DNA from: Escherichia coli
GTDB lineage: Bacteria; Pseudomonadota; Gammaproteobacteria; Enterobacterales; Enterobacteriaceae
Assembly (NCBI RefSeq): GCF_002854065.1
Contig: NZ_CP024147.1
DNA: 64,000 nt
Reading direction: 5' to 3' (one strand)
Part shown: positions 24,293 through 24,391 of the stretch, piece by piece
Layout of the letters: every line of letters begins with the position of its first letter
Numbering within the stretch: the first letter of the stretch is position 1
Made by a program: the position numbers and the translations under genes
Notes under the pieces: model-generated
The model's input: only the letters and a program-made list of their open reading frames with translations
Told to the model about the DNA's origin: nothing
Databases searched by the model: none

Positions 24293-24340
24293 TGCACATA
24301 CGCATTCGTTAAACCATATATGTTTTTGACTTATCCGCTT
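24293..24340 (+). promoter_or_regulatory. Native chromosomal ars promoter/ArsR operator remnant
   Basis: TGCACATACGCATTCGTTAAACCATATATGTTTTTGACTTATCCGCTT closely matches the recalled K-12 ParsR/operator; followed directly by arsB 3' codons instead of arsR. Confidence 0.55.
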
Positions 24341-24391
24341 TGGTTTGTAACGCTGGTGGCGCTGGCGCTACGTCTCTCTTTCACTTTGTAA
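24341..24391 (+). pseudogene. arsB: arsB remnant: last 17 codons only (…WFVTLVALALRLSFTL*)
   Basis: Near-identical to the 3' end of arsB at 9212-9262; upstream coding sequence absent. Confidence 0.7.

Follow-up and report, generated by a model that had tools for sequence, protein, structure and literature searches.

Organization of the locus

The native ars locus described here lies within a 64,000-nucleotide stretch of Escherichia coli DNA (contig NZ_CP024147.1), which we call the window and whose numbering is used throughout. An arsenic island of about 26 kb sits in the last few codons of gor, the 3′ end of which is modified, with dinQ on the other side. The island comprises window positions 1–23716 and about 2.3 kb upstream (4425934–4452004 of the CUWW06 record), and imperfect repeats are found at its ends, TTCGTTACCATGAG on the left and TGCGTGACCATGCG on the right. 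The right end (23717–23732, plus strand) is an imperfect copy of the last 16 bp of gor (CGTGACCATGCGTTAA), and K-12 homology resumes by BLAST at 23717, which corresponds to position 2637 of the K-12 locus.

The island carries an arsRDABC operon (5397–9700, plus strand), annotated in CUWW06, with arsR at 5397–5747, arsB at 7973–9262, and arsC at 9275–9700. It also holds a second, divergent arsenic cluster at 11813–16954 (arsA, arsD, a sigma-70-family gene, arsH, arsR, and a permease) and a multi-gene recombinase module at 17413–22271. Identity to K-12 is 76.6% for arsR and 83.4% across arsB-arsC, and arsRDABC is accordingly a separate R773-like operon rather than as native genes that have been relocated. 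The island copy, at 76.6%, is also the sole match to K-12 arsR within the window, with none at the native locus. Relocation of the native arsRB was considered and judged unlikely, as the window matches are to the island copy only, and a third, K-12-like arsB is argued against by the near-identical CUWW06, in which an arsRDABC query finds only two places.

Between the island and the native ars genes lie dinQ, a type I toxin gene (23786–23869, minus strand; homologous annotation in K-12, CUWW06, and other compared genomes), and the AgrB antisense sRNA with its terminator (24144–24228, plus strand). AgrB matches covariance model Rfam RF02891 over its full length and scores 103 bits, where the gathering score is 40. 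K-12 carries two Agr copies, agrA and agrB, but the window only this one, and the alignment shows a 230-bp gap in the window. O145 strain RM9872 has the same arsRB scar and yet both agrA and agrB, so that the copy number of this sRNA, the DinQ antitoxin, is not tied to the deletion described below. At about 24198–24205, in or close to the run of A residues in the AgrB terminator stem, the window differs by 1 bp in length from CUWW06, 100416, Combat11I9, and DSM103246; either a true indel or a sequencing error in the homopolymer could account for this.

Structure of the deletion scar

Global alignment of window positions 23730–24800 with the gor-arsC region of K-12 MG1655 resolves into two blocks. 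The first pairs the K-12 record from agrB to ParsR (3648348–3648491) with window positions 24199–24342 at 96.5% identity, and the second pairs the arsB 3′ end and arsC (3650176–3650602) with 24343–24769 at 95.1% identity. The 1,684 bp that separate the blocks in K-12 are missing from the window. Since the same one-piece configuration recurs in more than 1,000 public genomes, the two-block match reflects homology rather than chance.

In a base-level comparison, the left-flank homology has its last base at 24340 (...TTGACTTATCCGCTT), the dinucleotide TG at 24341–24342 is assignable to neither flank, and the arsB 3′ end (GTTTGTAACG...TTTGTAA) occupies 24343–24391. The deletion junction thus falls at 24340–24343 on the plus strand, with no more than 2–3 bp of microhomology at the break. 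The arsB remnant consists of 15 authentic sense codons (FVTLVALALRLSFTL) and a TAA stop at 24389–24391, and the arsC ATG follows at 24404. The deletion took with it the −10 box (GACACT) and transcription start, the leader and coding sequence of arsR, and arsB codons 1 to about 414.

These results uphold most of what an earlier note had read from the DNA: that the K-12 ParsR/operator sequence runs to 24340 and then gives way to the arsB 3′ end, that the native arsC start follows directly, that arsR and arsB have been cleanly deleted from the resident operon, and that regulator and pump are lost here while the island carries arsRDABC. The sequence upstream is indeed the ars promoter, and native arsR-arsB were not found elsewhere in the window or in CUWW06. 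The note's count of 17 codons for the arsB tail needs adjustment, as 17 is reached only if a hybrid TGG codon is included with the 15 authentic sense codons and the stop. A cluster of five differences next to the TG, on the right side of the junction, was considered as a trace of mutagenic repair, but it is mostly explained by a parental arsB resembling that of strain E69 (see below); once such an allele is considered, only the TG at 24341–24342 stays unexplained.

Native arsC and IS1

The native arsC′ (24404–24772, plus strand) retains codons 1–123 of 141. IS1 truncates the gene after the last of these codons, at 24772/24773, and the reading frame continues into the element to 24853. The IS1 (24773–25540, minus strand; IS1B in CUWW06) is 768 bp long and has insA/insB ORFs and terminal inverted repeats, with ends GGTAATGACTCC... 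at 24773 and ...GGCAGCATCACC at 25540; the K-12 match resumes at 25541. No target-site duplication flanks the element, which has taken the place of the 3′ end of arsC, yhiS, slp, and the initial 13 nt of dctR. The lineage of the window has in this way lost slp and the start of dctR at the edge of the acid-fitness island. In 100416, an IS1 in the same orientation as that of the window lies between yhiS and slp, and it is a plausible precursor for IS1-mediated adjacent deletions.

The native arsC is also a mosaic. Positions 24199–24574 are identical to the scar allele of Combat11I9, and a divergent recombination tract follows at 24575–24730 (plus strand; arsC nt 172–327) with 19 clustered substitutions, 17 of them synonymous, that are common to CUWW06 and 100416. 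In this tract dS is about 0.22 against every other native allele examined and dN is about 0. About half of the sites agree with the island arsC, the others with no sequence examined, and such a composition looks like imported divergent arsC sequence. Gene conversion by the island arsC as the sole source was rejected, as only about half of the 19 variant sites match it.

Distribution of the junction

Loss of arsR and arsB with arsC kept has been described in isolates of phylogroup B2 and in some of phylogroup E (Sütterlin et al. 2018, AAC 62:e00209-18, PMC5923176). According to that paper, all B2 isolates are without arsR and arsB and all are arsenite-susceptible, arsC is found in every clade, the gene order in phylogroup E is either B1-type or B2-type, and ECOR-42 is without the operon (PMC5923176). 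For ST131, absence of arsRB and a low arsenite MIC are given in a second paper (PMC9731454). As in the published arsRB-less locus, arsC is the only one of the genes present between gor/dinQ and the next ORF of the window.

The junction itself is common. Among 5,426 complete E. coli genomes, 1,105 cover a 1,051-bp query from dinQ to arsC without a break, and the exact 38-mer across the junction is present in 738, including O25b:H4-ST131 EC958 and O145 strains. A 201-bp query of the B2-type junction is spanned in 1,111 of the 5,426 (~20%), Nissle 1917 among them, and in 1,029 of these 1,111 the identity is at least 99%. The window's own version of the junction region was found at an identity of at least 99% in no more than about 40 records, which makes the window-type allele a minority form and the B2-type the majority. 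By alignment, the break and the TG filler are identical in Combat11I9, DSM103246, O145 RM9872, AZ161, Nissle, and ZLWT. The 38-mer and the alignment together identify the junction of the window as the same as that of B2 strains, that is, as identical by descent. The scar is a common E. coli allele that is near-universal in phylogroup B2; outside B2 it is carried by a minority of lineages, among them O145:H28 and that of the window. Searching the junction 27-mer against one-genome-per-species representatives returned 0 matches, and these sequences hold no evidence of the scar outside E. coli.

The residual ars promoter

In K-12, the annotated Pars consists of an ArsR binding site (ACACATTCGTTAAGTCATATATGTTTTTGACT), a −35 box TTGACT, and a −10 box GACACT, with the agrB terminator upstream (PMC9134189 supplement). 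The window retains the first two of these elements. An orphan ArsR binding site, ACGCATTCGTTAAACCATATATGTTTTTGACT, lies at 24300–24331 on the plus strand and agrees with the K-12 site at 29 of 32 positions, and the −35 box TTGACT (24326–24331, plus strand) lies inside it, in keeping with the ~32–33-bp site overlapping the −35 box in E. coli chromosomal ParsR. The earlier note was thus right that the operator is still present. The differences from K-12 were considered as operator decay, but the AAACC variant is present in the intact operon of O157 and the ACGC variant in that of E69, and both are polymorphisms.

The remainder of the promoter is gone. The break falls 9 bp past the −35 box, between the −35 and −10 boxes; the arsB tail follows GCTT, and neither the GACACT box that should stand 17 bp past the −35 nor the transcription start is present. 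There is also no downstream arsR for autoregulation at the scar locus. A sigma-70 consensus scan of the plus strand from 24072 to arsC found no promoter-like site. The proposal that the operator drives the truncated arsC therefore finds no support, with the −10 box and transcription start deleted and the scan empty at the junction. The leader from the scar to arsC shows no unusual RNA structure (z = 0.18), and a terminator-like hairpin at 24356–24371 was set aside, two such hairpins having been found against 1.3 expected by shuffling.

Starting from the observed anatomy, shared junction, prevalence, and order of events, we favor with good confidence the reading that this is one old, inherited arsRB deletion scar, a common allele that is probably inert. 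A single old deletion of ~1.68 kb would have taken the −10 box, the transcription start, arsR, and nearly all of arsB, and would have joined the ArsR binding site and −35 box to the terminal 49 bp of arsB, leaving the scar at 24293–24391. This scar is inherited and much older than both the arsenic island at the 3′ end of gor and the later IS1 that cut arsC. With the promoter broken, there would be nothing for the orphan operator to regulate, and the arsC that follows is truncated. Functional inertness is thus the most likely state of the scar.

The regulator encoded on the island could still find this site. Island ArsR is identical to K-12 ArsR at 84 of 117 residues (72%), the metal-binding/DNA-binding stretch ELCVCDLCTALDQSQPKISRHLA is identical in the two proteins, and the operator of the island operon shares homology with the orphan site. 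Binding of island ArsR to the orphan site is thus plausible. Such binding would probably be without consequence: with the −10 box gone it would occlude nothing, a single additional site would draw off a negligible amount of ArsR, and arsC is truncated.

One set of observations sits less easily with an inert scar. In all arsRB-less genomes examined, except the IS1-bearing lineage, arsC is intact, and comparison of AZ161 with Combat11I9, which represent the two scar types, gives 14 synonymous and 9 non-synonymous differences (dN/dS 0.19), values that indicate purifying selection on arsC between the scar types. An arsC that is intact and apparently under purifying selection without arsRB is presumably expressed, and of the places where its transcription could start the scar lies closest. 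Candidate sources are a weak hybrid promoter and read-through past the AgrB terminator. The only literature found on arsC expression in arsRB-less strains is the Sütterlin paper, which leaves as a question whether arsC has another function (PMC5923176).

In the hybrid promoter, a weak extended −10 element newly supplied by the arsB tail would be paired with the surviving −35 box and ArsR operator. The fusion yields TTGACT, a 17-bp spacer, and TGT-AACGCT (24346–24354). The −35 box is a good one, and the fusion adds a TGn motif together with A2 and T6 of a weak −10 hexamer. Under this proposal, arsC would be constitutive in strains without ArsR and, by way of the intact binding site, arsenite-inducible where an island (as in the window) or plasmid brings ArsR. 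Several features speak in its favor. The −35 box, 17-bp spacing, TGn motif, and A2/T6 are present in both scar types; the binding site survives essentially intact, and island ArsR has a conserved DNA-binding stretch; the upstream AgrB terminator should limit read-through; and arsC is retained, under apparent purifying selection, without arsRB (PMC5923176, in part). The 38-bp junction core is identical in the ST131-type and window-type scars even as their flanks differ by about 10%, a pattern that constraint could explain, as could a more recent common origin of the core. On the other hand, the hexamer AACGCT matches the consensus at only two of six positions and goes unreported by the consensus scan. 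The core does vary, with one G-to-T change in Nissle and ZLWT, although in Nissle this change leaves A2 and T6 untouched. The binding-site region differs by ~11% between scar types, a level resembling neutral drift, and promoter activity would be of little value in the window strain, in which arsC is truncated. We therefore regard a functional hybrid promoter as unlikely.

If the hybrid promoter were real, it would explain why more than 1,000 arsRB-less genomes have kept arsC intact under purifying selection, the native arsC would become inducible by arsenite again whenever a mobile element supplies ArsR, and the conserved 38-bp core would reflect selection. Either way, the structure of the scar sharpens a question that Sütterlin et al. 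had posed, namely how and why arsC is kept and expressed without promoter, regulator, and pump (PMC5923176).

Origin and age of the scar

The favored reading of one old deletion can be examined through the arsB remnant. Relative to arsB of K-12, O157, and EC974, the remnant has GTA in place of GTG and GTG in place of GCT. A 22-mer containing both variants has one match among species-representative genomes, E. coli strain E69, in which arsB reads CTGTTTGTAACGCTGGTGGCGCTGG at the position of the remnant. E69 (CP089930.1, extract L013, 2168–4303) is a separate species representative with an ancestral-type arsB 3′ end. It carries an intact arsRBC and diverges by 5–6% in gor and 11–12% in arsC, and is useful as an outgroup to polarize changes at the ars locus. 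E69 has no yhiS between arsC and slp, and chuS and chuA lie downstream. Because the remnant (24343–24391, plus strand) shares the GTA and GTG of E69, the scar keeps an outgroup-like, ancestral state of arsB, and a remnant of this type fits a single old deletion.

The flanks tell a more complicated story. To within 8 bp of the junction, the left flank of the window-type scar resembles that of the intact O157 locus and the left flank of the B2-type scar resembles that of intact EC974. EC974 itself (extract L012, 5305–6110) represents another structural variant of the ars locus, in which an extra ArsR/SmtB regulator and a permease replace yhiS directly 3′ of the intact arsRBC. The simplest reading of the flanks would be one deletion whose surroundings were later swapped by recombination that halted at the 1.7-kb heterology. 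The resemblance of each scar type to a different intact haplotype is also what would be expected if the deletion had recurred independently at a hotspot, with the same end points in B2 and non-B2 strains. Recurrence is nevertheless very unlikely, since the TG filler and the GTA/GTG bases of the remnant are common to both types. No partial match of the 38-mer to an intact arsB was found in the 5,426 genomes, meaning that the junction-proximal 28-mer with these remnant bases has no exact counterpart in any intact arsB of the collection. Microhomology of only 2–3 bp also counts against recurrence, and the mosaic is more simply explained by flank replacement ending at the heterology.

A single inherited deletion can also be placed in time relative to the island. 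The right boundary of the island is present in only 2 of the 5,426 complete E. coli genomes, CUWW06 and 100416, and arsRDABC at 100% identity in CUWW06 only. Strain 100416 has the island and the scar with arsC intact, whereas CUWW06 and the window have the island, the scar, and the IS1 truncation of arsC. Combat11I9 and DSM103246, close relatives of the scar allele, are island-free and have the order gor-dinQ-arsC. Judged from these genomes, the sequence of events was an ancient arsRB deletion, then gain of the island, and then the IS1-associated loss.

The earlier note had implied a link between the deletion and the island and had proposed dating one against the other. The two features do lie within 20 kb of each other in the window. 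However, the junction occurs in 738 to 1,111 of the 5,426 genomes without the island, across phylogroups and including ST131, ST73, and O145, against 2 of 5,426 for the island, and Combat11I9 and DSM103246 show the scarred gene order with no island. A junction so widespread without the island makes the deletion far older than the island, and a causal link between them is extremely improbable; their co-occurrence is coincidental. That the arsC-only state is ancestral, with arsR-arsB inserted in other lineages, is barely conceivable even though B2 is an early-branching phylogroup, as the scar holds an in-frame C-terminal fragment of arsB and half of the arsR promoter, the deeply divergent E69 has an intact arsRBC, and Sütterlin et al. 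likewise conclude that the genes were lost and not gained (PMC5923176).

Comparison with known ars loci

Overall, the scar is real but ordinary, a gene loss and an allele that were already known. Loss of arsRB with arsC kept is a published marker of the B2 lineage and carries little weight as a discovery. What is added here is the position of the break between the −35 and −10 boxes, the two unassignable nucleotides, and the ancestral-type arsB remnant; the presence of the junction in non-B2 genomes as well, within flanks characteristic of such lineages; and the succession of events in the lineage of the window, with deletion followed by the island and then IS1.

Compared with the K-12 ParsR used in arsenic biosensors (PMC9134189, PMC3918153), the window shares the 32-nt binding site and the −35 box but is without the −10 box, transcription start, 5′ UTR, and arsR, and its site is therefore not a complete promoter. 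The island operon is of the same type as R773-type arsRDABC, but it occupies a separate locus and did not give rise to the scar, in which the arsB remnant is of chromosomal type. The arsenic resistance of the window strain is best explained by dependence on this island operon.

With the published arsRB-less locus, the window shares the gene order gor-dinQ-arsC-(yhiS)-slp-dctR-chu, and the junction is shared at the nucleotide level with ST131 EC958, AZ161, Nissle 1917, and O145. The relevant passages of the published account cover gene content and phenotype rather than break points or the retained half-promoter (PMC5923176). Unlike the published B2 form, the window allele lies in a non-B2 background with O157/O145-like flanks, has the ~26-kb arsenic island between gor and dinQ, and has an arsC that is further truncated by IS1. 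The arsenite susceptibility that accompanies the loss of arsRB in B2 isolates would be expected to be masked in the window strain by the island arsRDABC.
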